64,000 nt of DNA from NCBI GenBank assembly GCA_958009085.1, contig OY253672.1, positions 992,001 through 1,056,000 on the forward strand, in the 5' to 3' direction. Made by a program: the position numbers and the translations under genes. The notes beneath the pieces are model-generated. The model worked only from the letters and a program-made list of their open reading frames with translations, searched no databases and was not told the origin of the DNA. This DNA comes from Protoeuglena noctilucae. Its lineage: Eukaryota. Positions 7,476 to 46,384 of the stretch are shown piece after piece. The first letter of the stretch is position 1; each line of letters begins with the position of its first letter.

Positions 7476-9713
7476 CTACAACTCCGTGCGCTCGCTGGCA
7501 AGGGGCGGTGGGGCCGAGCGCGTCGACTGGGCGCCGAAACCGTCCCCGGCGGCGGGAGAGGTGGCAAGAGGGGCGGTCAGCAGATGGTAGATGCGCCATG
7601 CAAAGAAGACAACCAGGAACGCGTATGCAAGACGCGTGAAGTAGGTGACGCCATGCCGGAAGTCTCCGAGCATAAAGAGCCAGGGGAAGGCATCGTGCTG
7701 ACCCGTTCTCTGCGAGAGGGTTGGAAGGGGGCATGGAAGGGTGGGGCTGGGGGCGAGACGAGCGGCTGGCGGAACAGCTGGAATGGTTTTTGTCAACGCA
7801 CCTTGGATGGCACTCGCCGAATGCGACGGTGCGGCGAGTGGTCCCCTCCCGGGCGCTCCTCCCCAACCGCCCCCGCCTGCTTGGCGTGCCGCTCCACTGC
7901 GGAGAGACACCGTGCCACAATGTTTAGATGTCTTGATGAAATGGCCAGCCAACGGCGCACAGGGTGGGTGGGGAGAACGTGCTGTGCGCCGCACCTCGCG
8001 AGAGGACGTCTAGCTCTGCCAGCACCATCGGGTCGCTGAGGTCCAGGTCCAGCGACCGCGCCACTTGCAGGACGTCGGGGTCTGCGGGTACCGAGAGAGT
8101 GAGCAGCGCGTCATCGGCAGCGGGCCATCCCCCACCCTACGCATGACGGCACAACTGCGCACCGATGTCGCTGATGGAAAGGCCGCCAATGGTACGGGGA
8201 AGCTGCGAGAGGAGGACCCGTTGAGCCCGCAACCTCCGCTGGCCATCGTCCGCATCGCTTTCGACTGTGCGGAGCGTCCCCAAGTCATTGCGGGGAGTCT
8301 TCGGCACCCCTGTCCCCTCGCCGTCGTGGGCCGCTGAGCCCCGGCTCTCCGTCCACGACGCGCGCTGACGAAGCGCGCTCCCCTCGAGTCGGGGCCGCCC
8401 GCCATCGCCTCCGGGCGATGACTGGCCAGCGCGGAAGTCACCCTCGCCAGGGCCGGACCCGGCACTGTCCTGGCTCGGTGCCACCTGCAGGGCACAAGCG
8501 CGCCAGTCATAGCTGTCAGGGCCTGCCATGCGTGCACAAAAGCGCGGACGGCAACGGCGTGTAGCTCACCCATGGAACGCTGCTGGTCGCGCCAGGGCTG
8601 AAGGGCGCTTCGGAACCCAGCACCCCGGCGATGGTGGCGTCGCTGGGACCCGCCCTGTCCACAGCGTCGCCCGCGCCCCGCGATGCCGGCCCGTGGTCCC
8701 CGTGGAGTCCCAGCATCCTCTTGGCCATCTGCGGCAAGAGGGAGAGCCCCATACTCGACCCCGGGTGCGCTTGGAGCCCGGCCAGCAGCACTCGGCTCTC
8801 CATGAGCAACTCCGCCCGGCACCTGGCGCTCCGTCGTCCTGGCGCTCGCCAGCTCGCTTTCGGCTCCTTGCAGCAAGGCGCAGACCTCATCCAAATCGAC
8901 CCTGCCCACCGCCCCCCCGCCCCTGTCGCCCGCAGCCTGCACGCGTCGCAGGTCAGCCACCGCGACCTCGAGTCCCCGCGCGGTGCCCTGAAGCAAGTGG
9001 CCCTTGGCGCGGAGGACGCGGGCCTCGTGCTCCCGGCCCCCGAGGCGCAGCGCGGTGCTCGCTGCGTAAACCACGGCGTCAGCCGAGCCCGTCGCCAGGA
9101 GGCAGCGCCCGGCGCCCAGCATGGCCGCCGCGACCAGGTGCTCCGCCGCCTCGCGCTCGGGGGTCTCGAGGAGGAGGATGGCGCTGCGCAGGGGCATGTC
9201 CTCGGAGTCCTTGCGCCGCTCGAACCACAAAAACACGCCGATGGCGGCCGTGTAACGCGAAAGCGCGCGGTCGAGCTCCCCTGCGCACGCAAATGCGTCC
9301 CGTAGTCCCCTTGAAATCGCGCAGGACCATGGACACGCATCGGCCCAGCTCCTCGCCTGCGTCTTCCAGCGTCCCCGCCTCCTCCAGCACCGACTTGGCG
9401 TAGCCCAGACGCTGAGGGAACGCCAGGAGACGGGAAACCTTCACCTCGTGGTTCTCCACGACGGTCATCCGCAGAAACTCCGGCGCGCCGTTCTGCAGGG
9501 GCGACGGGTGCGGGCAGCCCTGCCAGCAGCTCGCGTCTGCGCGCTAATGGCCTCGCCCCGTGGGCCTGAGTACCGGCAACATGCCATTCCACGCGCCACC
9601 AGCGCGCTGCCCACCCAGGCCTTCCGCCCCGGCGCGTGCGCCATCGCCCGGGCCTTAACCGCCATCGCCCGGGCGACGAGCTGGTCGATATCCATGAGCT
9701 CCCCCTCCTCCAT
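7476..9713 (-). CDS. Hypothetical multi-exon protein with helical/TPR-like region, near-C-terminal TM and terminal RTEL
   Basis: Exons joined by GT-AG introns. TPR-like AASTALRLGGREHEARVLRAKGHL; TM LAYAFLVVFFAWRIYHLL; ends SERTEL*. Confidence 0.55.
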
Positions 9714-10162
9714 GGCCTACCGAGTGTCCCGACGGGGATGGAGCGCCGACCAGGGCGCAGCAGCGTGGAAAGGCGCGCAGGTTGACTCGCCAGTGTGCGA
9801 TACTGACAGCGCGGCCTCTGCGCGCCGCAACGACTCCTGCGCGGCGACGACATCCGCGGCCGTATTCCACGCTTTCATAGGGAGATCGAGCGCCTGTGCT
9901 TTTACGTTAGACCTAGGGTGCGCGTCGTTGTGACTCCCGGCCTTGCCGCAAATGGCCTCGCTAGTGACTAGCTTGCTCCCACCAAACTAATCTCTAGGTC
10001 GCGCGGACCTCGCATCCCCGGCCTTGACGCCACTTGGCGAGCGCCCCTCGCGCAAGCCTGGGCCGTCCCGGCCGTAGCGGCGCCTCCTGCGTGCCTCATT
10101 TGCTGCAATAGCGCGACAGAGGAGGTTCTTGGGCCTTGGGAGGTGGAGGAGGGGCCGGAGCC

Positions 10163-13100
10163 ATGGGGACGTTCCGCGTGGCCCGATGGGCGCTGGCCGT
10201 GTCCGCGGCGTTGTTCGCGGTCGCTGCCGGTGTTCATGCCGCGCCGACCGTCACCCCCTCGACGTGCACCATCACGTACCAGGAGACGAGCACCACCTCG
10301 GCGACCACCGTGGCGCTCGGGAGCGGGACTTGCGGGTCCATGAACATCGTTCCCGACGCAAATTACTACGTGACGCAAATCACGGTCGCCATCACGACCA
10401 GCGCGCAGTCCTACGACACCCTGAGCGTGGACCTCACTCAATGTGAGTGACGCTGCGGCGCTGGGGGGCGCGCAGAGCTCTCAGACTTGCGCAAACGCGA
10501 TCTCTTGGCGCCGACTGTGTGCGCGGCGATGCCTGGCTGGGCCCCGCCGCTGTGCGCGCTGCTGCACAACCGCGCCATGCATGTGGAGGCCTCGAGGCGC
10601 CCCGCGCGCCCTCCGGCGGCCCGCGAACTAACTCGGCGTTCCCGTCTGTTCCTCACGCAGACACGGGCTTGGCGAGCACGTATAGTTCAAACACCCTGAC
10701 GATAAAGAACTCGAGCAACACTGCTTCGGCGACGTATCCCCTGGCCCTCAACTCGTCCACGCCCACCAACATCCTCAACGCCGTGGCGTTTGGCGATCCT
10801 GCCAGCAACTACAACCCGAGCCCGCTGAACCGGACCCTCACCGTCACCGTCACGACGTGCAGCATCGCGACCGCCACGGCAGGGGCCGCGTGCGACAATG
10901 GCGCGAGCCCCACCCTGGCGACGTCGACAGCCTCCACCGTCACGGTGAAGGTGACCGGCCGTCCAACATAACTCAGCGCCTCTGCCGAAGATGACCTCCC
11001 CCGGCAGCCCCACAAGCGCGTCTTGTCGCCCTGTGCGCAGATGTCGTTGTACAACAGCCCTCCCAACATCAGCCTCGACTGCCATGGGGGGAACGACACG
11101 GGAACCGGAGGCGACGATCCCGCTCGGTGCGGGGCGCCGACAAAGTACATGGAGAGCCCCAACACGGGCAACCTGGCCCTCTTCCCGTCGACGGTGCGTG
11201 CACCTGCAGACCTGCAGTGCTGAGGGAGATGCTCTGCCGTCCTAGCCTGGCATGTCCTAACTTTCTGCGACCTACCTGGCTCTCGTGCAGGCGAACAAGC
11301 CCACGGTGGATGACTACCGGACAGGCAACAGCTTCACGACGACGACGGACGAGAACATGCTCATCGTGGCGGCCGAGATCTACGTGACCGTGGGGTCGGT
11401 CACGGATCCCACGGCGAGCACCGGGGTGGTGGGCGATGCGGGGGACATCCTCTCCCTGAGCAGCACCGGCACGAGCGACGCGACGGGGGCGGGCATCGCG
11501 GTTGCCACGTATGTCACCCCGACGGCCACGACGGCCGGGAAGCTGGCGCTGTCGGGCAACGTCAACACCGCCACGGCGCAGAGCTCGGCGCTCAACTACG
11601 CCGCGGTGCTGTTTGAGGTCATCTACAGCAACAGCTCGTCCAACGCGAGTGACCAGTACCGCATCATATGGTTCCGGGTGAAGGACGCCGGCAACGTGGA
11701 CGCGAGCGGCAACCTCGTGGGTGACGGGAAGTGGAGCGACTTTGCCAAGTTCTACGTTGGCTTCCAGCGGTACAACACGGCCCCCATCTACGCCACCGTG
11801 CCCACGGCGGTGACGTTCACGGAGAACAACGCGAATCCGTACGGGGTGCACAACGGCCAGGCCCTTCTGTTCACCAGCACGAGCCAGGCGAGGACTGCGG
11901 GGCTGGGGAGGCATGACGCAGTCGCCCTTACCATGGTTTACCATGGCGCGTGGGGTGACCTGTGCCCATCCCCTCCCCTTTCCCCTTCCGCAGAGCTTGG
12001 CGCTGTCGGACACGGATTCGACCTACATGCTGAGCTCCACCGTCACCATCTCGGCGAACTACGACTCGACACAGGACTCGCTCGCGCTCTGCGACGCCTC
12101 CACGGGCTGCTCCGCCCTCCCCACGAGCATCACCTCGACGTGGGACGCGACGCACGGCACGCTCACCATCTCGCGCGCCACCGGGGCCTGCAACGTCAAC
12201 ACCGACACCACCTGCATCACTGTGGTGAGTCGCGGGTGCCCTGCGCCTGCGAGCCATGCCTTGCGGTTGCTATGCCATGCGAAGTGCCTGCTCAGCTGCT
12301 CGCAAACGCTCCCGGCGCGTCGTCTCCTCGCAGGCCGACATGCAGGCCGCGCTGCGTGCCGTGGTGTACCGCAACCAGCCGACAGGGCTGGACAACCCGT
12401 CTGGGAGCCCCCGCACGGTCACGGTGACGACGACCGACTTTGACCCCAACACGCTGGCAAACATGGTGGTGCCGACCAACTCGGGGACCAGCACGGTCAC
12501 GAACGGGACGGGGACGGCTAGCAACCCCAAGACGACCACTGCGTCCTCCGTGACGGTCACGGTGGTGGCGGTGGACGACCCGCCCGTGCCCACCTTCCCC
12601 AAGCTCGACGTGGTTTTCGTGGGCAAGTACACGGACGTGGTCCCGGCGGCCGACGCCGGCACCTTCACCGTGACGGACCCCGACAACACGACGCTGGCCC
12701 AGGCGTCCATCCAGATCGACACGAGCACGTGCGACACCACCACGGCGTCCGTCGCCCAGGTGGACACGCTGACGCTCTCCGGCACGTGGGCGGCCGGCGA
12801 CGTGGTGGGCGTGACGGTGAACGGCACCAACGTGCCCTACACGGTCGTCAGCAACGACCTCACCGCCAACGGCGACGGCACGGGCGGGACGGCCACGGCG
12901 ACCCAGGCGGCCACCAACATCGCCGCCAAGGTCAAGGCGGCCGTGGCGGCCAACACGAGCATCGCCAACGCCGTGACGGTGGGCAACAGCGCCGCAACCG
13001 TGACCTTCACGGCCAAGACGGCCGGCACGCCCTTCACGTCGGCCGTGTCGGCATACGACGCTAAGACGCCGCTCGTGAGCGTGTCGACCACGACGGCCAA

Positions 13101-16100
13101 CGCCTACCAGACGTCCCAGGTGTCGTCGGTGACCATCGGGGGCACCCCGGCGGCGGGGAACGTGGTGTCGGCCACGGTCGCCGGCACCGCGGTGTCGTAC
13201 ACGCTCGTCAGCGGGGACACGACTGCGACCGCCGCGACGGGCCTGGCGGCGGCCATCACCACCAACGCGACGACGTCCGCGGTTGTGACGGCCGTCACCA
13301 GCGGCAGCGTCGTCTACCTGACGGCCAAGACGTTCGGCGGCTCCTTCACCATCTCGGCCACGCAGACGGGCACGGGGGCGACGGCCACGGCGGCCATGCC
13401 GACGGCGGGCGTGGCCACGGCGATCGCCCAGGTGTCGACGGCCATCGTCTACGGCTCCTGGGAGGTGGGCGACGCCGTGACGGTCAACGTCAACACCTAC
13501 ACAGTCACCTACACGGTCACCAGCAACGACTTGACCGTCAGCGGCACTGGCACGGGCGGGACGGCCACGGACAGCCAGGCGGCCACCAACATCACCGCCA
13601 AGGTGGTCGCGGCCATCAACGCCAACGCGAGCGTCTCCCCCACGGTGCTCGCCACGCAGCAGGCGGGCACGGGGACGTTCACGGTGGCGGCCAAGACGGC
13701 CGGCGTCCCCTTCACGCTAACGGTGTACCCGACGCCCCGGCAGAGCGCGTCGCTGGTGACGACCACGTGGGGCGGGCTCGAGGACCAGCTGGCGATCCTG
13801 AGCAGCAACGTGCACAACTTCAGCCACTGCGTCGACTCGACGAACGCCATCATCGTGCCGGCGGCCGGCACGACGTGCGCGGCGGCCGGCGGCACTGAGA
13901 CGACCGACTGGGCCAAGGTCGTGGTCCCCACGTACGTGGCGCGGGCCTCGAACAGCGCCAACAACTGCGCGCTCACCCTCGTGGGCCAGACGAGCATCGA
14001 GAACTACAAGCGCATCATCCTGGCGGCGCGCCTCACGGTCAACAACTCCAAGACCACCACCGACACGTCCAACACGTACGCGGCGAGCTCGGGCAGCGGC
14101 ATCTCGATGCGCTACCTGTACACGGTGCTCAACGACGGCTCGGTGTCGACGTCGTCCACCGACTCCAAGCGGACCTACTGGGCCTCGAGCTTCCTGGGGA
14201 CGCCCACCGTGAGCTCCACAACCCCGTCGGCCGTGTCCACGACGGGCGGGCTCGTGACCGTCACTGGCACCAACTTCGGGCCCGTGGGCCCCTACGACGT
14301 CAACACGGGCGCGTCGTGCAGCCCTTACGACTCCAGCAACCGCCGCATCGCCACGTGCCTCTTCCCGGAGATCATCGGGGACTCGACGCAGGGGTGCCCC
14401 GCCGAGCCCTGCACGAGCGTCAAGGGCAACATCGTCTCCAAGGTCTACATTGGCGGCAACGAGTGCACGGGCGCCAAGGTTGTCTCGACCACGTCGCTCA
14501 CATGCACGGCGCCGGCGGGCAACGGGACGGGCATCGGCATCTGGGTCGTCACGTCCCAGTCGTCGTCCACCGCCAGCATGCTCAAGACCGGGACGGCCGC
14601 CAACGTGTTCAACTACAGCGGCCCGACTGTGGTGGGCATCGTGGCCCCCGTCAAGACGTGCGGGCCCAACTGCACCTCCAACGTGCTCACCATCCTCGGG
14701 ACCAACTTCGGCGCCCCGGGGACCACGACCGTCTCCTCCAGCGGCGGCGGCTTCGTCAAGATCACCTTCACGTACGACGCCAGCAACCCCGTCGCGTGCA
14801 CCAACGCCGCCGTGATCGACACCAAGGCCCGCGACCCGACGTGCACCACGTGTCCCTCCAACACGAGCCTCGACGGCACTCAGTACGAGGCAATCACGTG
14901 CACCCCACCAGCCGGCGTGGGGTCGGGCCACGCGATGCAGGTGCAGGTGCAAGGGCAGGCCTCGAGCGCCAGCAACACGTTCTTCAGCTACATCGCCCCG
15001 AGCATCACGAGCCAGGCCACCGTGTCCTTCATCCCCGTCAACCTGCTTACGGTGACGGGAGACAACTTCGGGCCCGCGTGCGGGGGCACCGGGACGGCGT
15101 GCATCACGAGTGGGACGGGGGTCAAGCTGCAGTCGCTGGTGATCTCCGACCCGTCGAGCACCACGACCGTCAACTGCACCACCAGCTTCCAGGTCGTGAG
15201 CGACACCCAGATCGTGTGCAAGCCGCCATCGATGCAGACCACCGTTGCAGCGGGCGTCTTCGGGTCTTCGGACACCACCAAGACGTACAACCTGACGGTG
15301 AACGCCGGGAACCAGACCAACACGGACGGCGCGAACAAGTTCAAGTACCTCGCGCCCAGCATCACGGCGATCACGGCCTACTGCAGCGCGGCGGCTGGCT
15401 GCACGACGCCGGCCGCGACCCTCAACTACAACGGAGACGACTTCCAGATCACCGGGACTAACCTGGGCATCACGACGTCAACCGTGGTGGTCTACTTCGG
15501 GACCTACGCCATGCCCGGCGGCACGGGGTACTCGGTTCCCACAGGGGGCCAGTCGGTGGCGGTGGCGACCAACGACACGACCATCAAGGGCTACGCGCCC
15601 GACTACATCACCACGGGCAACACCTTCACGCCCAACGTGTACGTGACGGTGGACAGCATCGCCAGCAACACCCTCAACCTCGCCTCCAACCTGTACCAGG
15701 GCCCTGCGCTGAGCAGCACCGTGGTGTACGGCGACCAGTTCGGCTACGGCATCAACGGCTACGTGGCGTCGTCCGACGTCACGTCCAGCTCGATACAGTC
15801 GACGGACGTGACGCACATCCAGGCGGACGGCTCTTGGATCACCATCACGGGGCAGAACTTTGCCCCCAAGTACGGTTTCACCCCGCGGCCGTTCAACACG
15901 GGTGAGAAGGTGACCATCAACGGCGTCGACGTCACGTTCAGCAACTCGGCCACGATGACGTACATCTACGACGCCTCGACCATCTACATCCGCCACTCGA
16001 CTGCCATTGACAGCACGGGGGCTGTGACCCCGCAGTCGGGGACGGGCCTACCCCTGGCCGTGACGATCAACGGCCAGGTCACGGCGACGGTGAAAACCTT

Positions 16101-19100
16101 CACCTTCCTCGGGCCCTACATCTCCCAGAAGGTCACCACCGGGTCGGCCGTGTACACGGAGGGCGGCCCCATCACAATCACGGGCAAGCGCATCGGCCCG
16201 ACGGGGTCCACGTACTTCAACGCCAGCACGTACACCAGCGCAGGCATCTGGCTGTGCCTCAGCTCGGACTGCACCAGCAAGGTGGCGTGCACGGGCGCCA
16301 CGGTGACGACTGTGGACTCCGTGGTGACGTGCACGCTGGACCCGACGGCAAGTGGGAGCAGCCCGCAGTTCTACGCGTTCGGCAACGAGCTCACGGGCTG
16401 GGCCGGAGCCGTGACAGGCTCGCTCGCCGCGGCCGTGAACGGGCGCATAAAGATGGTGGTCGCGTACACGGGCGACGACGTCACGGCGTCCACCACCAAC
16501 ACGGCCACGACCAACAACGGCCACGGGTTCGCGCTCGAGTCCGCGACGGCGTCCGGGACGGGCAAGTTCACGGTGTCCGCGCCCGTCATCACCTCCATCT
16601 CGCCCAGCACGGGCCTCTACACGGACGGCCGCACGACGGCGGGGTCCAACGTCATCACCATCACCGGGCACGACTTCGGCGGGGGCAATGGGACGGCCAT
16701 CACGGCCGCCAACGCCTCGCAGTTATTCGTGCGCGACGTGACGATCAACGGCAAGACGTGCCAAAACATCACGGTGGTGACGGGGAGCGCGAACAGCTAC
16801 AAGCTGACGGCGGCGGGCGACCCCGCCATCATCACGTGCCAGCCGGTGGCCGACATCGGCTCCAACAAGGCCGTCAAGGTCGTGGTGGGCAATCCCGCGG
16901 ACCAGACGACCTGGCAGTCCAGCAACGTCGACAAGACGGTGTCGTTCGGCACGCCCATCGTGACGGACGTGTTTGGCGCGGACGGTTCGAGCCCCAACCG
17001 CACGGTGCCTGCGGCCGTCCCCACCTCGCCAGGCTACAACGTGGTGACTATCCAGGGCATCAACTTCGGTGCCACCGGGTCCACGGTCCAGGTCATGTTC
17101 GACATGGACGGCAACGTGGCCACCACGGGGGACCAGGTCACGTGCGCGACGCCCACGACGGCCGGCGCCTGCGGGGGCAGCAACTGCGGTGTCACGGCGT
17201 GCGCCGTGTCGGACGCCAGCGGCAACTGCCTGGGCGACTACATCCGGTGCCAGTTCACGGCCCAGAACACGGGGTCGCTCGGCAGAGGGTTCCCACTGCG
17301 GATCATCTTCTGCGACGCCGACGGCAACAGCGCCTGCGACACGACCGCGGACCCCGCCGCCGGCGGGGCGACGGGGCTCGGGAGCCAGACGGGCACCAAC
17401 TACTGGCTGACGACGGTGCGCAGCACGGGCGCCTCCAACCTGGGCACGGTGAGCGGGCAGACGGTGCTGAACGTGACGCTGGCCTTCACGCCGCCGGCCA
17501 TCACTGGCATCACGGTGGCAGCGGCCACGGACGGATGGGTGGGGACCTCCACGCTGACCATCACGGGGACCAACTTCGGGAGCCTGACGACCGGCAACCC
17601 CTCCAACACGCAAGTGGCCGTGCAGATCCTGCACACCACCGAGAAGCCCACGTGCACGTCGGTCGCGGCGTGCGGGACCACGTCCGGGAGCACGTGCATC
17701 ACGTGCAGCTACACGTGCGAGGGACAGGCGTCGTCCCCGCTGCCCTGCGTGCCCAACACCGACCGCATCGTCGCCATCAAGGTGGCCGGGCAGATGTCCA
17801 ACTACTATGTTTGGAAGGGCGGCGTCCTCGGCCCGCTGATCAAGAGCCAGGCCAACGGGGGCGTGTCTGCGCCGTACATCTTCGCCAGCACGGTGTACCC
17901 GATCACCATCAACGGCTACCGGTTCGGGAGCACCAGCACGGACGCGGCCGTGACGCTCGACTCAATCCGCTACTGCGACAAGACGACCTTCACCAGCTGC
18001 TCTACCGACAACACGAGCGGCACAATGGCCAGCGGCAACTGGGTCTCTATGACGACGACCGCCCGCGGCGGGACGGCGCCGAACCTGTACGTGACGGGCC
18101 AGACCCCTGCGCACAGCCAGACGGTGGGGGACGGCTCGGACGCGCTGACGGTCAACGTGCGGTTCACCTACTCGGCCACGCTGTGCAACTCGAGCTGCAC
18201 CACGTCCAACCCCAACAACACAACCACCCCTTGCGCGGGCGTGCAGGGCATGACGGACTGGACCAGCACCACCGACTGGAACACCATTGTGTGCACCAGC
18301 GCGGCATCGGGGGCGACGACGCAGGTCGCCACCACCTACTCGACGAACTCGACCCCGAGCGCGCAGGACAACGGGATGGCGGCGCTCGAGTACAAGGCGC
18401 CGACCTTCTACACGTCAGTGGACTCGGCGCTGGGCAGCACGGTCCGCGTGGCATCGCAGACGCAGGACGGGGCCAACTTCATCACGGCTCACACCACGTC
18501 CGGCACCTATACAACGACGTCTCAGGCGATTACGCTCATGGGCGAGGGCTTCGGCAACGTCGTGAACAACACTTACATCAACGGCGTCAGGATTGATACA
18601 GAGGCCGCGACAGGAACGTACTTTGGGCCCACAACGTATTCCGCCACCGTCAGCACCAGCAACTCGTTCGTCATCACGCTCCCGGATGGCATCGGCATCA
18701 CGTTGCTGACCGTCCAATTCAGCTGCGATGCCGCCTCGCAGCTCGGGCAGCCGCTCCCCAACACGTCGACGAGCGGGTCTGCGACGCAGAGCACGCAGAC
18801 CGCAGCCGCTGCAAGTCAGGCGCAAGTGGACACGATCGTGCTGTCCGGGACTTACGAGACCGGGGACACCGTGAAAGTCACGGTCAACGGGACCACGGTC
18901 TCCTACTTGGTGGTGGTGGCCGACTTCCAATACAGCGGAGCTGCGGCCACGAACGCCCAGGTGCTGGGCAACATCGCCACCAACTTGGCCGCGGCCCTCG
19001 CGGGTAACGCCACGGTAAGCGCCGCGGTGACGGCGACCGCCAACTCGTCGACGGCGACGGTGACGCTCACGTCCACGTGCGGGGCGTCGTGCACGGCGTC

Positions 19101-22100
19101 GACGGGCTTCACGACAACGGCCACGGTGGTACGCACTGCCATCACGGCCAGCGACTACGCCTCCCTGACCTGCCGCGGCACGACGTCCACGCTCAAGATC
19201 CTCCGCACCGCGCCGGCAATCTCGAGCAGTCTGCAGACGGTCGGTGGCGCGGGGGGCACCCTGACCTTTGCCGGGACAGACTTCACGACGCCCGCGCTCG
19301 TGTCCTCCACCTCCCTGGTCACGGCGGCGCTGTACAGCGGCACGAGCCTGTACCAGAGCCTCACGATCACCTCCATCACGTACGACTCCACCAGCAACAC
19401 CTTCAGCATGGTGACGACGGTGCCGGCCGGCACTGGCACCGGGTACGACGTGCACGTGACGGTGCAGCTTTGCAGCACCTGCACGGCCATCGTCGGCATC
19501 TCGTCGGGCAAGGTCTCTTTCACGCTGCCCCAGATCACCAACATCACCTCGCTGCCCACGCTGTCGACCCAGACGACCGTGTCGTACACGTACACGTCGG
19601 GCACGGGCACGGCCACCGACACCCTGACGGGCGCCTGGATCACCATCCCTGGGACCAACTTCGGGCCCAACCTGACGGTGGCGCAGGCGGCCCAGCGGCA
19701 GCTGACGGTCAGCTTCACGTACAACGGCGCGCAGACGACCTGCCGGAGCCCCTTCATCACCAACTCGCAGGTCGACACCACCAGCGGGATTCAGTCATCC
19801 GACATCGTGTGCTCCATGGCCTGCCTGACGGGCGAGTCCAACTGCACCGGCACGGTCGGTTCCGGGGGCAACTACGTGCCGTCCTTCTCCATCAACGGGT
19901 CCGCCTGGGCAGTCAACACCAACAGCAAGGTGTTCAGCTACGCTGCACCCACTATCACGACCACAAACTCCGTCAACATCTGGGGCACGGGCGTGGTGAC
20001 CATCACAGGGACCAACTTCGGCCCGACCGACAGCTCCACGGTGTACATGCCCGCCGGCGGGGCGCGTGGCCTCACGGTGGCCTTCTCGAGCCCTGCTCTG
20101 GGCCTCGCCAGCACCGCGTGCATCAGCCCGACGGTGACGGGCCACGCCACCATCACGTGCACGCCACCCAACCTGAGCGGCCAGCTGTCCCTGACCAACA
20201 CCACGGTGACGGTGACCGTGACGGTGGGCCCCTCGGGCAACACGCAGTCTGTCACGGCCAACTACACGTTCTCCCCGCCCGTCGTCTCGACCGTCGGCCA
20301 GCCGTCTGTCTTCGGCGGCGTCATCACCATCGTGGGCACTGACTTCAGCCAGACCGACCAGAACGGGTCGCTGGGAGGCCTGTACATCAGCGGCTTGGCC
20401 GTGTCCAACCTGACGCCCTACAACGCCCAGGTGACGACCACGAAGATCGTCCTCACGTTCCCCTCGTCCTCCGGGGGCACCATCTACAGCAACACGCCCA
20501 TCGACGTGGTGGTGGGGGGCGTCAAGAGCACGATCGTGAACGCGTCGACGGCGCCCGTGGCGGGGACGGTGGACCCCCGGTACCTCAACTCGGTGGGCCC
20601 CACGGTCGTGGCGACGACGACGGTCCCGACGTCCGGCGGCGTCGTGGTCATCGCGGGCACGGGCTTCCCGCCCGTGACGGGCACCGTGGTGGGCACGGGC
20701 AGCGACTCCGTGACGGTGGGGACGTTCAAGTGCACGGACGCTATGTCTATCGACAACACCAACGCGCACTGGCAGACGAGCCTGAGCCAGTACAACCAGA
20801 TGACGTGCACGCTGCCGGCGGGCACCGGCAAGAACAAGCCCGTGACGATGATCTTCTACACCAAGACGTCCTCCAACGACGCGTCCTTCCAGGGCTTCTC
20901 ATACGCTGCCCCCACGGTCACCAGCGCCGTCACCTCCTCCGGCAGCACCAGCCTGGTGCCCGGGAGCCCCATCACCCTCAACGGCACCAACTTCGGCACC
21001 GACGCGTCGCTGGTCCTCGTGACGGCGCAGCTGTGCAGCACCCCCAACACCCCGTCCAACTGCAGCACCAACCCCACGAGCACGTGCACCAATGTGACCG
21101 TCACGCAGACCACCGTCTCGTGCACGCTCCCCGTCTCCACCAACACGGTCGGCACCACCGTGGTGCTCAACGTCACGGTCGACAGCGTCGCCATGACCAC
21201 CCCGTACGGCATCACCATCGCCCAGCCCACCATCACGAGCATCCTCAGCGGCGGCGCCGCCGTGCCGCCCACGGGCGGCGTCGTTACCATCAGCGGCTCC
21301 AACTTCGGCCCCCTCTGCGGCGGCACCAACCCCAGCTGTTCGTCGACCATCGCTGCCGTCACGTTCGGCGCCAACGCGGTGGCGTGCACCAGCCCGTCGG
21401 TGACGACGGCGGACTCCACGGGCAACGGTACCGTCATCACGTTGACCCTCCCGGCCGCTTCGACGGCGGGGACCACCCCCTTCGCCGCAGCCGACCTCGG
21501 CGCGGGCGGCATGTCGGTGTACGTCAAGGTGGGCCCGTCGGCGACCACTGCCGTCTCCTCGGCCGCCTACTCCTTCTCGTTCGCCGCCCCGACGGTCACC
21601 GGCATCACCTCCTCCGGCGGCGGCAGCCTCCCCGGGACCACCACGCCCAGCGCGTACAAGGGCCAGACCATCACCGTCACGGGCACCAACTTCGGCACGG
21701 CCACCGAGGGCCCCGTAATCTCCATCCACCACGCGCTGGACTCCACGGCCATCTTCAACGTGCAGTCGTCGGACATCGTGTCCGTCTCCAACACCCAGAT
21801 CGTGTTTAAGGCGCCCTCGGGGTACGGCTACCTGGCCTACATGCAGATCAACATCTCCAGCCGCGAGGCGACCTACACGGCCCTGAGCCTGACGACCACC
21901 CGGCCGCCGTTCCGGTTTGCCACGCCCGCCGTCCTGCCGGCCGCCCAGCAGCTGGTAAACGGCGTGAGCGTCTTCACCACGCCGACGAGCATCCCGCTGG
22001 CCTCCAACAACTCGCGCGGCAACACCAACGGCCTGGTCACGATCGTGGGCACGGGCTTCGGCCCCGTCTCGGCCGCGGGCGCCAACGGCATCCAGGTGGT

Positions 22101-25100
22101 GCTGCACAAGTCACGGGCCACCGCCACGGGCACGGTGGACAACGTGCGGGCGTGCACGAACCCTGCGGTCACGACCGAGGACACGGTCTTGGTGTGCGAG
22201 CTGAGCACGAACGGGGTCGGGTCGGGCTGGGACGTGTACGTGGGCGTGGGCAGCAAGACGTACAGCCCGTGCGTGGTGCAGATCAACGTCGGCTCCACGC
22301 CCTTTTCCTTCTCCGGCGCCGACTGCCAGGTCAACGGGTTCACGTACAGCGCCACCGCCACCTTCACGCCCATCGCCAACAACACCGTCGGGGTCGGGGC
22401 ATGGGCCTTTGCGCCGCCGGTCGTGTCGAGCGTGCGGTTCTGCCAGGTCGGCGACACGTACTGCAAGAACGCGGACTACTCGCAGCAGGCGCAGCCCGCG
22501 GTGGTGTCGACCGGGTCAGTGACGAGCGTGGCCCAGGTCAGCACGGCGACCTTCTCGGGGACCTGGGAGACGAACGATGTGGCGACCCTCACGATCGGGA
22601 CCAAGGCGGTGAGCTACACGGTCGTGGCGGCCGACCTGACGGTGAACGGCAGCGCCGGGACCGCCGCGCAGGTGCAGGCCAACGTGGCTGCCAAGCTGGC
22701 CGCGGCCATCACGAGCGACGCCACGGCTGGCGCGTTGGTCACGGCCGTCGCCGCCAGCGGGGTGATCCGGCTGACAGCCAAGACGGGCAACTTGAGCATC
22801 ACCATCGCTCAGAGCGTGACCAACGGGGGCACGGACAACATGCAGGCCATCGCGGTGGCCACGATCATCCCGGCCGCCGGCACGTCGACCAACAAGCTCT
22901 ACATCACGGGGACGAACTTCGGCACGGCGTCTGAGACCATCACGGCCCTGTCCAATACCAGTGTCACGATCAACAACGCGGTCCAGGTGTGGCTGGTGGG
23001 CCCGGGCGACGGCACGTGCACGCGCAACAACGTGGCGCTGCCGGGCGTGGAGTGCAAGACGGCGACGCTGGTGACCGCCCAGACGGCGATCGAGTGCGTC
23101 GTGCCGGCCAACATCGGCGTCGGCATCAACGTGCTGGTGGAGGCCGGCGGGCAGGTCGGCACGACCCCGACCTCGCCCACGACCGCGCAGCAAGTGAGCT
23201 TCCAGGCGCCCGACATCACGTCCGTGACGTCGTCCGCCACCCAGGGCAGCACGATCACCGTCACGGGCACCGGCTTCGCGAACCTCATCCCCGACACGAC
23301 CGTCGACAGCACGTCCTGCTACGCGTCGTGGTTCACGGCCAACGCGGTGCAGGTGCTCTACAAGCAGAGCGACACTGCCCAGTACGGCACGTCGGCCAGC
23401 TGCACCTCGTTCGCGGTGGCCACGGTCAACAGTGTGGTGCAGGTCACGTGCACGGCGCCCAAGGGCACCGGCACCAACCACTCCCTGCAGATGGTGGTGC
23501 GCGGCGTCACGTTCACGGCCAACTCGGGCCAGGCGCAGTCCTTCTCGCCCTTCAACTACCTCGCCCCGACCGTCACGAGCGTGACGGCGCCCCCCGTCCT
23601 GGGCGGGACCATCACGATCAATGGCACCAACTTCGGCAACGTGCTGAGCTTCGTCCAGGTCCAGATCTACCCCCGCAGCGAGCTGAGCAAGACCCTCGCG
23701 CAGCGCACGGCCCTCGCCGCGACGGACGGCTGGTGCTCCAACACGGGTACCAACGCCAGCCTGGCGGTCCCCACCGCGGCCGCCGACACGGTGAACAAGA
23801 CGGGCCAGCACTTCCAGCTCACGTGCACGGTGCCGTCCGGGATCGGCTACAACTTCTCCGTCAAGGTCACGGTCGACTCCCAGGACTCCGGCAACACCGG
23901 GGACGGCCTGCTGGCGTACCTGCCGCCGACCATCGCGCCCACCACGACGCTCTCGACCGTCAGCGGCACCACGTACGCCGTCAACCCGCGCGTGGGCAAC
24001 CTGGTCGGCCTGACGACCATCACCATCGCCGGCACCAACTTTGGCACCCCCGACCTGCTGAGCAACCCCCCCTCGTACCTCTCCACGGGCGCCATCCAGG
24101 TGTGGTTCTCTACCGACACCGCCGCCACGGCCAACGGCGCCAGCAAGGCCGCGGCCACGTCCTTCCAGGCCGCCCAGTCCTCCGTGGTCATCTACCGCCC
24201 CGACTCGGCAAGCGACATCTTCTACATAATCGCCGCTGTCCCCGTGGGCGCCGGCAAGAACGTCAACGTGTTCGTGAGGGCCGACGGGCAGTTCTCCGCC
24301 GCGAGCAACCGCGCCCTGTACGACTTCCCGCCCCCCGTGGTGACCTCCACCAACGTGCCCTCGGCCGCCGGCGGGGCCGACACGAGCGGGGACGGCAAGG
24401 GCCACATCCTGACCATCACGGGCCAGAACTTCGGCCCGGCCAACACCCCCGTGACCTCCGTCATGGTCGGCGGGTACACGTGCAGCAGCCCGGTCGTGGT
24501 GAGCAGCACGAGCATCACGTGCGCCATGCCGGCCGGCAACGGCTCCCAGTACGTCGTGCAGGTCACCATCCTCGGGTCCACGTCGGACCCCGGGACGTGG
24601 CGCATGCGCTTCCGGTGCCCCACCGTCTCGGCGGTGTCGACCACGCTCACGGGCGCCGTGGCGGCCGCGCCCGCCTGCAACGGCACCGACTGCGCCCCGG
24701 GCCGCACGGGGCAGAAGGTGGTGGTGCAGGCGAAGGAGCTGGGCCCGACGACGGACATCTACAAGATGAAGGTCAAGTTCCTCCAGCCGGGCTCCACGGA
24801 CGCGAGCCTGGCCTACTGGACGGCCGTGGGCACGTCCGACGCGACGAGCGACCTCGCCTTCGCGCCCAGCTTCCAGCAGCCGGACAACCAGGGCGTCTAC
24901 ACGCTCCTCGTCACCGTGCCCGTCGGCTACGGCAGCGGCCTGCCGGTCGTGGTCGAGGTGAACGGCCAGGACTCCCTGGGCATGTGCGGTGACACGCCCG
25001 CCCGGTCCATCAGCGGCATTGACTCGTCCCTCAAGTTCTCGTACCCCAAGCCCGTCATCCTCGCGGCGGACTCGGTCGGCACCGAGGGCGGCGTCATCAC

Positions 25101-27730
25101 CGTCCACGGGGAGAACTTCGGCCCAGCCGGGACGCAGGACCTGGAGGTGGACCAGGTGTCGTACGCCGGCATCAACATCACGTGCGCCAGCGCGCAGGTG
25201 CTGCCCTCGTACGACAACGTGCGCATCACGTGCACCATGGGCCCCGGCCTCGGCAGCAACAACCAGCTGTACGTCAAGCGTGGGCCCAGCGCGGGCCCCG
25301 GTGGCAACCAGCAGGTCACGTCGGACGCCTTCACGGGCTTCACGTACGCCGCGCCCGCCATCTCCCAGGGCGGGATCGTGTGCTACCCCGCCACCGCCAG
25401 CAACGGCCTGCCCGACAAGTCAACGTCCTCGAGCTCTTGCTCGGCCGGCGACTGGGTGTACATCACGGGGACCAACTTCGGCAACAACCCGGCCCAGACG
25501 GTGCTGGCCATCTTCGACCCGGGCCTGGTGGACAGCAAGACGAACCAGCCCACGATCCTGGCCACGGCCTCGCCCCCCAGCAACTGCAGCACGGCCACGG
25601 GCGACGCGTGCACGGCGACGCTGGTCATGTTCAAGATGCCGCCGCTGTCGGGCCAGAAGCGGTCGGTGCAGGTGCAGCTGCTGGCCAAGAACCCCGCGTA
25701 CAAGTCCTACGCCATCAGCTCGCCCTTCAACGCCACGCCCGTCTTCTTCTCGTACAAGCCGCCCACGGTCGATGGGGCCAACCAGGTCCCCACGTCGGGG
25801 GGCACGGTGACCATCACGGGGAGCCACTTCGGCGTCGTGAACGACGCGGTGGGCGTGTCGATCGGCACCCTGACGTGCGCCAACGCCAAGGTGACGGCGT
25901 CGGACGCCACCACGGGAGACGGCACGGGCATCCAGTGCACGCTGGGCGCGGGAGTCGGCGGCAGCATGGACGTGGTCGTGACGGTGTGGCCCTCGCAGCC
26001 GACCGCGCAGCAGACGGGCTTCCACAAGGCCCTGTTCAGCTACATCGCGCCCACGCTCACCAGCGTCGCCGGCCCCGGCACCGGCGCCTCGACCGGGGCT
26101 GCCCAGAAGAGCGCCACGGGCACGTCCGGGCAGACGCTGACGCTCACGGGCACCAACCTGGGCCTCAACGCCTCGGACATCACGGTGCAGTTCCTCCGGG
26201 CCGACCAGTCGGTCGCGGGCACGTGCGGCAGCGTGCCGGTGGTCAAGGACCACACGCAGATCACGTGCGTGACGCCCAACATCCAGGGCCTCAATCTGGC
26301 CATCGTGGCCGTCGTGGGGGGGCAGCCCAGCCCCACGTCCGGCGCCCCGCAGTTCACGTTCGACCTGGCCGGGTGCAAGAACCCCGCCGCAGAGAACTAC
26401 AACCCCAACGCCACGTCGGACAACGGCACGTGCGTCATCATCGGCTGCACCGACCCCAACGCCCTCAACTACACGCCCCCGCCCCCCAACGGCACGGTCA
26501 AGGACGGTGAGTGGGCTGAGTGGGATCGGACGTCCCAAGGCGCGGCGCACCGTAGCCGTGGAGTCGGTGTGTGCTCCCTGCTGCCTGCCACATATACAGC
26601 CACCCTCTGCCTGCGCCCGCAGATCCCAAGGGCTCGGTGTGCATCATGCCGCCCGTCACGGTCGAGATGCGACGCGACTTAGACTACAACCAGGTAAGGA
26701 CCTCTCCCTTCTTCCCACTCATGCGCCGCCCATGCCTGACGCATCGCAGTCAGGCTCCAGGGCCAGGAAAGACCCCCATCAGTCACCGCAAAACGTCCCT
26801 CCGCCCTCGCCCCCACAGTTCCTTGCCAACCAGTCCTTCTGGATCAACCAGCAGATCCAGAGCCTGGCCACCAACATGAACATCTCCACGAGCCGCATCA
26901 CGTTCATCTCGGCGCGCCAGGGCTCGACCATCTTCAACTGCCAGATCGCCGACGTGGCGCCCAAGGACCGCTCTCCGGGGGAGCCCTCGGCGGCCCAGGC
27001 GGCCCAGACGCTCAACACCGCCATCAAGGATGGTTCGTTCCAGGACGTGAGTGGCCACTGGAGAATGGCACGCACCTTCATGCGTTGCCAGGGGTTGCAT
27101 GCACAGGACCCGGGGGGCCACGTTGTGCGCCACACAAAGCCTCTGCTCTACGACACAGATCGCGACCCCCACGTTCGTTTCCTCAACCGCCCTTGGTCCG
27201 CTCGCCTCCCGCAGAACCCCCAGATGCCGCTGCTGAGCATCACGTTCGTGACGAACGGCAACAGCCAGGTGTCGGTCCCGAGCGACCAGACGGTGCAGAC
27301 GGCCCGGGGCGACAAGCGCATCTCCAAGTACAACTACGTGGCGCTGGCGCTGGGCGGCCTCGCGCTCCTTGTCCTCGCCATCTTCTCCAAACGCATCCTC
27401 AAGTTCCTCTGCCGCCGTCGCTCCGCCAAGTCCGAGGCCGGCCCTTGGCCCATCGTCGGTCGGCCCCGCTCGCGCACCAAGACGCGGGTGTACCCGGACG
27501 ACATCGAGACGGCCAAGGACGAGGACATCAAGGCCCTCGCCGAGCCTCGGAAGGAGCAGAAGGTCCTGGTGGCTCCGGCCGATGCCGCCCAGGGGGTCAA
27601 GGGCGGCGCCGACGCGGTGGCGGGACCCGAGGCACGCGCCGTGGTCGTCGCCAACCCGCCGCGCCCCCCGCAGCAGCAGCAGCAGCGCGCCGGCGGCAAC
27701 GTGTACGCCATGGGCCCGATGCTGCTCTGA
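10163..27730 (+). CDS. Giant (~5,512 aa) type-I membrane glycoprotein with ~30 IPT/TIG domains; 9 exons (10163-10442, 10661-10950, 11041-11193, 11291-11887, 11994-12224, 12334-26506, 26623-26693, 26819-27046, 27215-27730)
   Basis: Signal peptide MGTFRVARWALAVSAALFAVAAGVHA. Exon phases join consistently. 4808-aa ORF with ~30 repeats of P.ITS....GG.ITITG.NFG..C......I.C..P.G.G. TM YVALALGGLALLVLAIFS followed by basic KRILKFLCRRR. Confidence 0.9.
12751..13725 (+). repeat. Three tandem ~100-aa 'AQV.T..L.G....GD....TV.G..V.YT' modules inside the giant gene (further copies at ~18817-19130 and ~22528-22860)
   Basis: Visible protein repeat. Copies 1 and 3 also share long near-identical DNA (cagcaacgac..ggcacgggcgggacggccacgg..ccaggcggccaccaacatc). 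Confidence 0.85.
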
Positions 27731-28186
27731 GGCGGCAACGTGCACCCCGCCTGGCAGGCGCGGGTGCTGGCGTCTCTGCGCGCCGAGCATCGCACGCAGA
27801 GTCGTGACACGTGACTTGTAACTCGATGATAGTCCCAGTTACTGTGGCTACCTTACCACACGCACTTCCCATGCTTTGTTGGCAGGCGCCGCGCCGCCTT
27901 GCACGTGACTCTTATTTGGCAGCAGACCTCGATGTGGCCGCAAGATGGGGCTGGGGGATGTCATGAAGCTATTGACGGACTAGGAATCGCGACCCACGCG
28001 GACGTGGCGATGCGCTCGCCTGTCGCGTGGCCTAGCGTTGCGTTGCTGTTAGCCTTTCTAACGCCGCGGGGGCCCGGGAGGTGGCAGAGCGTTTCGGGGG
28101 CAGCGGCTGGGTTCGCGGAAAGAGGTCTTTGAATGATAATATGTCACACTGTGATGCCACGAGACAGGAAATCACATAAGAAATGA

Positions 28187-28226
28187 GTGAGTCCGCCAAA
28201 GTCACTGGTGAGTCCGCCAAAGTCAC
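28187..28226. repeat. Direct tandem repeat, 2 x 19 bp GTGAGTCCGCCAAAGTCAC
   Basis: Exact copies at 28187-28205 and 28208-28226. Confidence 0.95.
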
Positions 28227-29950
28227 GCTAGAGTGTCCTCCTCGTACTCCAGCTCCAGGTCGTCGTCGTCATCGTCCTGGCGAGTAACAGCCCCGGCCTC
28301 CTGCAGGCACAAGCGACAAGTGTGCGTCGCATCCACCGTGCAACGGCACATGACCTTGGCAATCACTGACACAGCTCCTGCCCAGACCAACCTGCGTGGC
28401 GTCCCCGTTCTCCTCTGGGGGATACTCGATCGCCGTCGGCAGGATGGGCCCTTGGGGCTCGCTGACAGCCACAGCCGATGTGCTCGCTGCGCCCTGCGCC
28501 TTGTCGGCAGCTGCGCGGGACATGTCGCGGCACTCCAGGCGCTCGAAATAACTCCGCGTCGAAGGAACGCTCCGCAGCGCCGCTGCCGCCGCGGGCGGGG
28601 CATCCGTCTGCGACCAGCCGGGCACGTGGGGCTCGCACTGGAGGGCAAGCACGACTGCACTGCTTGCAAAGGACAACGTCGAAAGGCTATGACACCCCTT
28701 GGCCGCCTCGCTCGGCACCTGGATCTCGATCACCGCCTGCGGGGCGTGCCTGGGCGGCGTCGGCACGCGCGCCGGCCCAGTTGCCGGGCCAGGGTCCGCT
28801 TTCGTCGCCGCCCCAGAGCCCCCGCTCCTCCACTCCAGCAGCGCCGCCTGGAACGCCGCCTTCGAGGCCTCCTCGTCGAAATCCCCGTCTAGCTGCGGCC
28901 ACGGGCGCGAGCGCATGGGTGGGAATGGATACCTCCTCAGCAACGGTAAACCTGCCGCGGGCTGCGTGGCTGCTTTCTGGCGGCCGTGAGCGTTGCTGCG
29001 GTCACCAGCGAGCTCGTTCCCGCGACCGCCCTCGTTGGCCCGCTGGTAGAGGGCTGGAAGAGTGCTGCCGTCCCCGACCATTGTGCGGACGCGCCGGCCT
29101 GCAAGCGCCATGAAAGCAGGGGGCCTGCTGGGTGGGACTGGACACAACTGGACAAAGACAGCGTGCCAAGGAGCAGCCGTGATTTGAACCACGATTGCGA
29201 AAACCGCGCCCCGTGGTCGCTTCCCACTCTCGCTGAGCTCTTGTGTCACCTTGGATGGCCTCTCAGCGTCCTTGCCGCCACTGGCCCGCATCTCTGGGAG
29301 CTCCGGCATCGACCACATGGACGCGTCCCGTCCGTCCTCCGTGCCCATGGTCATCAGCAGCTTGGACTGGCCCCCCCTGACCGCCGCGCCACGTGTTGAG
29401 CTGGAGGCCTCAGTCGCGGTCGGCACCTGCGATGTCGCCCCCCTCTCTCGGTCCACGTAAGCGGCCAGGTCCTGCGGGCATGCAGTCTCGGCGCTCACAA
29501 AACCGTCTATTGCTGGCGCGGTCGCGGGCCGCGGGTCGTGGAGGCGCGCCTGCACAGTTGCTTGGGGCGGAGTGGCCGTCGGCATGCGTCGCTCCCGGCT
29601 CGTCTTGCGCACGAGCGTCGCGACGTCCTTCCCCTTCAGCGGACCTGGTGCCGCGCTCGCCCACAGAGTGTTGCCTTGGCGCTGCTGCGCGGCCGGGGAA
29701 GGGGAGGAAGCAAGTGAGGTCACTGCGGATGTCGACGTCGCGCGTGCCATCTCGGCCGCCTCGCCCAGCGCCTCGCCTTGCTGCGGACCGAGTCGCGCTT
29801 CGCCTTCTCCATCGCCATCGCTTGTCGGAGCTGCTCCAGACGCGCCTCCATCTCGGTCGCCTCCGCCCGGAGCTGCTCCGACAGGGACTGGGTCCTGCAG
29901 GACGAGAAACAAGGTGGCGCTCCCTCGCAGCGTATTTCCCTGGCATCATC
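28223..29950 (-). CDS. ZBBX-like ciliary coiled-coil protein, no B-box seen; start uncertain
   Basis: LRAEATEMEARLEQLRQAMAMEKAKR..LWASA, LDGDFDEEASKAAFQAALLEWR and SYFERL resemble recalled ZBBX blocks. Confidence 0.6.
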
Positions 29951-30552
29951 GACAGCGACGAATGCTGGGCCTATTCGTGCATTTGCTCTCGCGCTCCGCG
30001 GGAGGCCAAATGGCGCATGCTCAGCCAAAAGAGACCAGCGCCCTCAGCGCTGCTTCCCTCGTTGCCATCGCACGATCATTGGCAACCTGGTTTCACCACG
30101 GGACTCGCCTGCTCCCCATCTCGCACCGCGGCCCGCGTGTGCCCTGCGCAGCTGTTGGGCGAGGTCAGCTCGGCCTGACTAGAATCGCGCAGCTCACGAC
30201 AGACCGCGTACACGCCAGCTTTCGCCTGCTCTTTCGGACTGGCCGCACGAATGGCCGGCGGAGCCGCGGACGGCAGCTGCGGTCCTCTGACATGTGCCAG
30301 AGGGGTGTCACTCGGCGCGGGCCTGAATTGACACGCTGCGGGTCTACAACGACCTGTTTCCCAACGTCGTCTCTTGCGTTGTGAGGCGGAGGGTCGGCGC
30401 TTCTGAGCTAAGCCCGAACAGGACGTGACGCGCCGCTGCTTCACCCCAAGCCCATCTTTCTTTGGCTTTCCGCGACCCCTCGACTGAGACGGCGCCTGGC
30501 AGGGCCTGAGAGGGAGACCGCCCTGTCGGGCGCGACAGCGCCATTCAGGACA

Positions 30553-45827: not shown

Positions 45828-46384
45828 TCACGCGCACGCGTTGCCCTGGGCCCCCTGGGCCCTGAGCTTGGCGGCGGCCACGTGCTCGGCCGCAGCCTTC
45901 ACCCGAGCGTCCAGCATCTCCTGGCGCTTCTCGGCGGCCTTCTCGATGCGCTCGTCCAGCTGCTGGGCCGCCTCGCTCGTCTGGGCGCATGGGGAGGGGT
46001 CCAAATCATCGGGGCGACGCAGGAGCGCGTTGGTCAGGAGCAACCGAGAGCGAGCGTCGAGTCGGTGACGTCCGTGCAGGCACAGGTGGGACCCACCTGG
46101 GCGGCGCGCCTCGAGGCAGCCTCCTCCACTTTGGCGGTCACGCCCGCGGCGGCCGTGCGGCGAGCATCGAGCTGGGCCTCCGCCCGCTCCTGCGCCGCCG
46201 CCAGCTTGCTGTTGAGCTCCTCCGCCGTCACGTTAGGCTTGCTCGCCTCTGGCGCCGCCTTGAACTCCTGGATCTTCGCCTGGACCGTCTCAGGCAGGGG
46301 CGCCACGCCGCCGGCGAACTCCTTCTTGTAAACCTTGATCACCTCGGGGTGGTGGCCCGGGTTGCGCTGCACCGACGCGCTCAT
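45828..46384 (-). CDS. 146-aa stathmin-like helical protein (2 exons: 46384-46097, 45980-45828)
   Basis: VTAEELNSKLAAAQER and LDERIEKAAEKRQEML resemble the two stathmin tubulin-binding repeats; GT-AG intron 46096-45981. Confidence 0.55.

Follow-up and report, generated by a model that had tools for sequence, protein, structure and literature searches.

How did a eukaryotic surface protein come to carry repeats of a kind known from giant bacterial adhesins? This question is raised by a gene of the alga Protoeuglena noctilucae, found in a stretch of 64,000 nucleotides that we analysed as a whole (the window: contig OY253672.1 of assembly GCA_958009085.1, positions 992,001 to 1,056,000 of the forward strand; coordinates below are those of the window). 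A preliminary description of this DNA had proposed that four repeats of the type I secretion system (T1SS)/RTX-adhesin type at the N-terminus of the encoded protein form an adhesive tip that was possibly acquired horizontally and that later gained introns. Our analysis points to a larger event: in what we consider the best explanation as a whole, with a probability of roughly 0.6, a eukaryotic surface stalk made of TIG repeats would long ago have received two extracellular modules of prokaryotes by horizontal transfer. The first would be a run of adhesin-type beta-sandwich repeats (R1 to R4), now the distal tip, and the second a knob of ~105 amino acids (aa), which in bacteria and phages is found spliced into proteins of the flagellar hook, junction, cap and filament, into tail sheaths and into giant adhesins; this knob would then have spread inside the gene, giving a knobbed stalk.

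The gene and its N-terminal repeats

The gene (Table 1) is transcribed and spliced, 7 of its 8 predicted introns being joined in RNA contigs from three metatranscriptome runs of two studies. The exception, intron 2 (10951-11040), reflects cover only, and intron 4 (11888-11993), which is of the GC-AG type, is backed by RNA contigs from both studies. An 81,954-base contig from another run covers 9500-28300 with no difference, and may itself be the source of this DNA. Introns, RNA and a second assembly together exclude contamination. The protein has the layout of a type I membrane protein with an IPT/TIG array, with a signal peptide recognised by eye, TIG repeats and one helix, which is the only place in the whole protein where mean hydropathy exceeds 2.0 (19-residue windows); Pfam found no G8 or PbH1 domain in it.

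Using a profile of bacterial repeats, four N-terminal units could be recognised, as had been proposed, and the motifs quoted at the time are present in R3, across exons 4 to 6. Their lengths are however 170, 208, 196 and ~540 aa instead of 150-190 aa, and an insert in R4 had gone unseen: this repeat is broken, between two predicted strands, by ~340 aa (12748-13752) corresponding to three copies of a different module. When R1 to R4 were compared pairwise, none of the six pairs gave z >2.4 or scored above the best of 300 shuffles. The lead to a family was the only match of the algal R3/R4 junction, P0125 (E 0.71, a lead only), which is the bacterial repeat named in the preliminary description and which matches Pfam CLSTN_C; starting from P0125, 54 and then 105 bacterial repeats were collected. 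On the first, 54-repeat profile, R1 reached 2.9 bits (8/500 shuffles as high), the C-terminal half of R4 alone was at chance (306/500 shuffles as high), and 82 windows of the TIG array, used as a control, gave a maximum of 7.7 bits. On the 105-repeat profile, R1, R2, R3 and R4 (its insert removed in silico) scored 12.7, 23.8, 53.5 and 11.6 bits. All four thereby exceeded every one of 300 shuffles, as did each of three repeat copies from an orthologue (P0127, see below), whose insert-free R4 covers profile positions 1-118 with 18.7 bits (0/300 shuffles).

R3 is 43% identical over 118 profile columns to a repeat of a DUF4347 adhesin, and a search with R3-R4 of the orthologue retrieved five of 8,000 candidate proteins (up to 3,158 aa; best E 8.6e-12), all five with bacterial-adhesin domains or bacterial names. 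Judged by these sequence matches, we assign the N-terminal repeats to a bacterial adhesin repeat family, and their bacterial origin appears likely. The bacterial link first proposed was thereby upheld, with R3 as the only strong match among the four algal repeats. Its restriction to T1SS/RTX adhesins was not: the repeat also occurs in a Paenibacillus S-layer-homology protein and in one protein each from Hymenobacter and Thermoleophilaceae; the algal protein combines a signal peptide with a transmembrane helix and gave no RTX match (HemolysinCabind, seven pieces covering exons 1-6); and its spliced gene lies among eukaryotic neighbours rather than beside ABC/HlyD/TolC genes. The term cadherin-like is not supported as it stands either, since no algal piece has a cadherin match in Pfam and the predicted fold of the orthologue R3 (predicted local distance difference test, pLDDT, 77.6) is a generic Ig-like sandwich without a clear match in the PDB (best Z 8.4), cadherin-23 being one of many ties (Z 6.2, root-mean-square deviation (rmsd) 3.1, 106 aligned). 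Calcium-type motifs, DxD and ND/DDxP-like linkers, occur in R3-R4 only, with no LDRE. Sequence searches of the PDB returned nothing for the start of exon 6, P0125 or a TIG stretch, and with the repeat alignment no match better than E 0.16; Pfam and NCBIfam gave no family name for either the repeat or the inserted module.

The giant bacterial DUF4347 adhesins (P0129, P0132 from Burkholderia gladioli and a Burkholderia anthina plasmid protein, L003) are likewise large extracellular proteins with the same ~140-aa tandem repeat family, but they have 4-15 conserved units where the alga has four diverged, Cys-bearing ones; unlike them, the algal protein has a signal peptide, introns in its gene and a transmembrane anchor, and neither DUF4347 nor an RTX motif. 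The B. anthina protein adjoins TolC/HlyD genes, and on this conjugative plasmid (L003:5849-22902) the repeat-bearing adhesin lies between annotated phage tail genes and the TolC/HlyD cluster.

Could the N-terminal repeats instead be an old eukaryotic inheritance related to the C-terminal domain of calsyntenin, with only the inserted module acquired horizontally? Such a relation had been noted early on, and it stands for the bacterial members, which match CLSTN_C (PF19699) above the Pfam cut-off, showing that the repeat family spans domains of life. It does not extend to the alga, where no piece, the intact orthologue R3 included, gave a match to CLSTN_C within E 10; on the bacterial profile, R3 scores 53-71 bits. 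Since bacterial members match CLSTN_C and algal pieces do not, the algal copy would be nearer to the bacterial form than to the calsyntenin profile. Inheritance could draw on the identity of R1, R2 and R4 to their best bacterial repeat, which is just 27-34%, and on the position of the five 5' introns, all in R1-R3; it has to face the five orthologue matches, all of them bacterial-type adhesins, and a TIG relative (P0135) in which no adhesin-type repeat was found, although that protein may lack its N-terminus. We regard it as improbable. A quick tree of 80 repeat rows joined R3 with its orthologue copy and resolved little else, so that the profile search and phylogeny suggested for each repeat gave bacterial matches but no supported nesting within bacterial sequences.

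Introns had also been read as a mark of the foreign tip. Six exons do overlap the repeat interval, but all five introns of the 5' part lie within R1-R3, R4 belonging to the same 14,173-base exon as the TIG array, and the remaining three are found close to the 3' end. In the orthologue, whose contigs of 21.7 and 26.4 kb may be assembled from DNA or from transcripts, the frame continues across the positions of introns 3-8 (all six tested), which are hence not shared with it, and a later gain of introns is not distinguishable from loss. The long exon (12334-26506) stands in a genome in which the neighbouring genes have many short introns, and the introns of the gene itself are restricted to its two ends.

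A knob module in the loops of the stalk

The module that interrupts R4 occurs five times in the protein (E1-E5, Table 1), and all five copies match a profile of prokaryotic copies with 72-112 bits. Over 103 aa, E1 shares 61% identity with an insert of the flagellar hook protein FlgE (P0011), the loop NDLTANGDGTGG being found in both, and E3 shares 71% DNA identity with E1 over 300 bases. When the N-terminus of exon 6 was searched with phmmer against 1.84 billion representatives, 119 matches were found, all on the knob. Among 86 knob matches scanned with Pfam, 24 were FlgE, FlgL-like, FliD or flagellin proteins, others being RTX, DUF4347 or other repeat proteins, and none of the 86 had a TIG domain; PHROG tail-sheath family 165 was matched by 17 of 59 scanned knob proteins. 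Four of the 10 top clusters looked up had a taxon name, bacterial in all four cases. A further 19 and 15 knob loci came from scans of genomes and of metagenomes (e.g., in FlgE of Rhodospirillales, in betaproteobacterial giants and in Synechococcus), 14 of these 34 being covered by the Pfam scan. A bacterial origin of the knob is therefore very probable in our view, and on sequence grounds the knob is a stronger bacterial signal than the adhesin-type repeats around it. Two side observations were made on these relatives: two marine contigs (L036/L037 and L032/L040) each have an FlgE and an FlgL-like gene ~6 kb apart, both with short-plus-long knob pairs, and the short knob occurs in two unnamed groups of proteins (P0016, P0020, P0038 and P0040; P0045 and P0048) of 160-290 aa and ~410-420 aa, which look like phage structural proteins.

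Structure prediction agreed with this affinity. The E1 model (pLDDT 90.1), on which all knob fold comparisons are based, is closest to residues 90-182 of the tail sheath 8kee_A (Z 12.1, rmsd 1.6, 91 aligned; Foldseek E 2.3e-5), followed by podophage tail proteins (Z 9-11), CbpD (Z 8.9), GbpA (8gul; Z 8.7, rmsd 3.0, 91 aligned), FliC (Z 8.3) and FliD (Z 6.6), and it also matches the Mu sheath and a crAss capsid chain. The knob thus has the sequence type and the predicted fold of the sheath accessory domain (~100-210 in PHROG 165, 90-182 in 8kee, 99-208 in Mu 9khy). In the variable inserts of FlgE, FlgL-like proteins, FliD and FliC and in the sheath domain, with up to 61% identity, the knob is likewise inserted in loops and varies in copy number; here, in contrast, it resides in a eukaryotic membrane protein, within adhesin-type and TIG domains and without a sheath or flagellar core. 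The part seen of the A-1(L) paper (PMC10966104) has no description of the matched domain.

Might these likenesses be an artefact, from a chimeric assembly or from convergence of low-complexity sequence rich in Thr and Ala? Composition is strongly biased, the knobs consisting of 59-70% Thr/Ala/Val/Ser with 1-3 N-glycosylation sequons each, and tblastn searches with algal queries against phages and plasmids were empty except for one match at E 4, a Variovorax adhesin. Spliced RNA, an independent contig and an orthologue with the same nesting, as well as the shared 12-residue loop, the 61% identity, the confident fold and the shuffle controls, largely refute this idea, which we consider extremely unlikely.

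Table 1. Features of the gene and of the protein that it encodes, in window coordinates.
Feature	Position	Strand	Score or remark
Gene, 9 exons, 5,512 aa	10163..27730	+	open spliced frame
Exons 1-5	10163-10442, 10661-10950, 11041-11193, 11291-11887, 11994-12224	+	
Exons 6-9	12334-26506, 26623-26693, 26819-27046, 27215-27730	+	
Signal peptide (basic n-region, hydrophobic core)	10163..10240	+	by eye; predicted cleavage after aa 26
Repeat R1, aa 27-196, introns 1 and 2, most degenerate	10241..11058	+	
Repeat R2, aa 197-404, intron 3	11059..11779	+	23.8 bits
Repeat R3, aa 405-600, introns 4 and 5, best copy	11780..12582	+	53.5 bits
Repeat R4, N-terminal part, upstream of insert	12583..12747	+	19.8 bits, 0/500 shuffles
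Knob E1, long type, NDLTxNGxGxGG loop	12748..13074	+	111.7 bits
Knob E2, short type	13108..13395	+	72.2 bits; PHROG 165 tail sheath E 1e-5
Knob E3, long type, probable tandem duplicate of E1	13420..13752	+	91.9 bits
Repeat R4, C-terminal part, resumes at EDQL motif	13765..14196	+	alone not significant
IPT/TIG array, ~30 units (counted with a self-built profile), intron-free	14200..26352	+	Pfam TIG E 2.2e-65, 15 stretches
Knob E4, within TIG unit, Cys-flanked loop	18814..19149	+	79.6 bits
Knob E5, within TIG unit	22522..22848	+	90.0 bits
Two short GCxxPxAxNY repeats	26362..26490	+	from sequence
Juxtamembrane domain, presumably SEA-like (resemblance by eye)	26623..27046	+	no Pfam or NCBIfam match for exon 8
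Single transmembrane helix, then basic residues and ~110-aa cytoplasmic tail	27329..27391	+	

The orthologue P0127 (5,744 aa, with a near-twin, P0134) is 47.5% identical to the algal protein over 5,020 aligned positions, and it showed that knob sites differ between the two. Its seven knobs comprise two in R4, two at the E4 and E5 sites (a degenerate copy at the former, a copy at the latter) and three at sites that are empty here, near window positions 17236, 19477 and ~22050, where this protein has only a short loop; conversely, E2 has no counterpart in P0127 (a 104-aa gap). The knob is therefore an insert in a host domain, the same loop being filled in one orthologue and empty in the other. 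Some copies of P0127 have decayed (O4 17.2 and O5 12.7 bits). Exon shuffling was excluded, as no knob is flanked by an intron; after its transfer, events at the DNA level, all within a single long exon, would rather have duplicated the knob and added or removed it at several loops. With two sequences only, gain is indistinguishable from loss. No knob is present in a distant relative (P0128/P0135), which is possibly incomplete; P0128 has the C-terminal region in common (29% identity over 1,415 aligned positions). The GCxxPxAxNY repeats are also found in P0127 and P0128; they have only weak matches, marine phage proteins at E 0.03-0.08 among the matches listed, and are possibly a third borrowed module.

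Donors and course of the transfer

Both a quick tree and an LG+G4 tree were made from 117 columns of the knob. The latter joined the insert of FlgE P0011 with a Rhodospirillales FlgE copy as sisters (support 99/96), and E2 with three small unnamed proteins (support 99/97), presumably phage-like, two of which match PHROG 165; E2 is the only algal knob with a supported non-algal sister group. For four of the five algal knobs, the top bacterial match is clearly better than the top algal one, the exception being E3, whose best match is E1. A single origin of all 12 algal knobs was not rejected (p 0.066), and that of the five R4 knobs was rejected narrowly (p 0.044), this group having been chosen after seeing the tree. 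One could imagine from this that the knob was acquired more than once from the bacteria and phages met by the alga, the long type from flagellar or adhesin genes and E2 from a small phage-like protein after the two algal lineages split, and that it was repeatedly re-inserted in stalk loops, making a capture scaffold that would display domains of prokaryotic appendages to catch, recognise or mimic bacteria; this scenario seems rather unlikely to us.

A frame of the marine Synechococcus sp. MIT S9452 (G005:C1:3-46829, minus strand; loci L058-L060 and L015) encodes at least 15,609 aa, being open at the contig start, and has 9 repeat matches and 12 knob matches, of long and short types, besides FG-GAP repeats. 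Since both modules and both knob types are in one frame, as in the alga, a single giant adhesin of this kind could have supplied everything, judging from its sequence. Its knobs nevertheless bud from other Ig-like repeats, no TIG units were found in it, and it is not the closest in sequence. The repeat is present in 7 of 18 knob-bearing genomes; among the three such frames examined, only the Synechococcus one has both modules. A ready-made bacterial knob-in-repeat unit was not found, the repeat occurring in 0 of 119 knob proteins and the knob in 0 of 8 repeat-bearing plasmid loci, and a giant-virus carrier is unsupported, viral contigs having given two weak partial loci and then none. The knobs have a GC content at third codon positions of 0.89-0.98 and a codon use inside the range of the TIG array; such host-like use indicates an old transfer, and a recent one is ruled out on both counts.

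Several points weigh against an old transfer of both modules that led to a binding stalk. The repeat and knob profiles were both grown from matches first found with algal queries, so that scores lean toward algal copies. CLSTN_C is a eukaryotic relative of the repeat family, and the repeat tree was built without calsyntenin sequences. The knob trees are poorly resolved, with E1, E3 and E4 outside any supported bacterial clade, and consequently they identify no donor; the Synechococcus knobs are not nested in an adhesin-type repeat, and the Synechococcus copies are not the closest by identity (~47-50% over 60-70 aa). The search of the 1.84-billion library, in which eukaryotes are thinly sampled, did not return the knob-bearing P0127, so that absence of the knob from other eukaryotes is not established; the collections searched favour prokaryotic gene calls. 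As to function, a shared fold shows none, and extra sheath domains may only stabilise, according to the accessible part of PMC9230969.

What the knobbed stalk may do, and its surroundings

An Ig-like unit measures ~4 nm. The protein would enter the endoplasmic reticulum and be anchored by its C-terminal helix, its rod reaching roughly 120-150 nm, and the knobs would project laterally from "split" domains and bind bacterial surfaces or polysaccharide weakly and multivalently, serving capture or attachment. We give this putative binding of bacteria or glycans a little less than an even chance of being the function. RTX adhesins project ligand-binding domains from split domains, as described in the part seen of PMC12077191, and the algal layout of an extender rod with budding domains fits this scheme as far as sequence goes. 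In the RTX adhesin AhLap (same source, same part), a domain likewise buds from an Ig-like domain that then completes its fold; in the alga, by contrast, the budded domain is the sheath/flagellar knob, present three times in tandem and without a known ligand, the host is eukaryotic and the split of R4 is known from sequence. The GbpA match probably lies in domain 2, from the range matched, although no algal piece matched the Pfam family of this domain (PF18416). GbpA attaches to the bacterial surface through domains 2-3, and its domain 2 is similar to a domain of flagellin (PMC3257281, in part); extra tail-sheath domains have been proposed to aid adhesion or stability (PMC9230969, in the portion available).

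The same transfers might instead have yielded a passive coat, in which knobs and tip give the stalk stiffness, spacing or protection from grazers, viruses or proteases without any specific binding. The Thr/Ala/Val/Ser-rich knobs with their sequons, the decay of O4 and O5, the differences in knob number and site between orthologues and the proposal that extra sheath domains stabilise virions (same portion of PMC9230969) would all suit such a coat, but three knobs are concentrated at the distal tip on a split domain, as are the ligand-binding regions of RTX adhesins, and three knob sites are retained in both orthologues at ~47% overall identity. We find a passive coat unlikely.

For comparison, we take fibrocystin-like proteins and Dictyostelium Tgr as eukaryotic membrane proteins with an IPT/TIG array. 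They and P0128/P0135 have a TIG array, a single helix and a short tail, as does the algal protein, but P0128/P0135 have neither bacterial module. Would the protein then be an adhesin of the Tgr type, for cell-cell recognition or mating, whose bacterial modules offer variable recognition surfaces between algal cells? Besides this type I layout with TIG repeats, a match of the distant relative P0135 to Ig_TgrO1 (E 1.1e-6) and lineage-specific knob patterns, which could encode identity, lend it something. No polymorphism was seen, however: the RNA contigs from the three runs show a single differing letter and the DNA contig shows none, although all of them may represent one population. A role of this kind appears improbable too.

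If the knobbed stalk that we favour does bind bacteria, it would bear on a subject for which knowledge at the protein level is poor, namely the means by which algae recognise bacteria and keep hold of them. Bacterivory accompanied by regulation of adhesion genes occurs in some prasinophytes, as reported in the part seen of PMC11217555. The gene supplies small candidate domains, predicted to be well folded, that are suited to expression and assay. Within the searches made, it would be the first eukaryotic home of a module found on flagella, phage tails and giant adhesins, inserted as a domain within a domain, all in one exon of 14 kb and with no intron involved; the literature covered, subscription papers and supplements lying outside it, gave no description of this gene or of a eukaryotic knob. 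Bacterial extracellular modules moving into protist surface proteins are a known kind of event, which limits the novelty of the case.

In the 3 kb downstream of the gene (27800-30800), there are few strong coding segments, and an RNA contig continues to at least 28300, indicating either a long 3' untranslated region or DNA in the library. Other neighbours are ordinary spliced eukaryotic genes, for TyrRS, choline kinase, a nucleotide-sugar epimerase-type enzyme, an MnmE-type GTPase and CFAP91, besides an LSD1 zinc finger scoring below the cut-off. An assembly gap of 200 N (36146-36345) is distant from the gene. A small spliced gene on the minus strand (45831-46408) encodes Ala/Glu/Lys-rich, coiled-coil-like repeats and has no Pfam match in the one exon scanned. 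An AMP deaminase exon scores 178 bits to PDB 2a3l versus 126 bits to 26xc, and a TyrRS exon prefers 8zmi and 7sc6; we take 2a3l and 7sc6 to be plant proteins. The host is probably a marine green alga that bears cilia. The CFAP91 gene, at 30882-33055 (Pfam E 6e-14), suggests that the host has a motile cilium.

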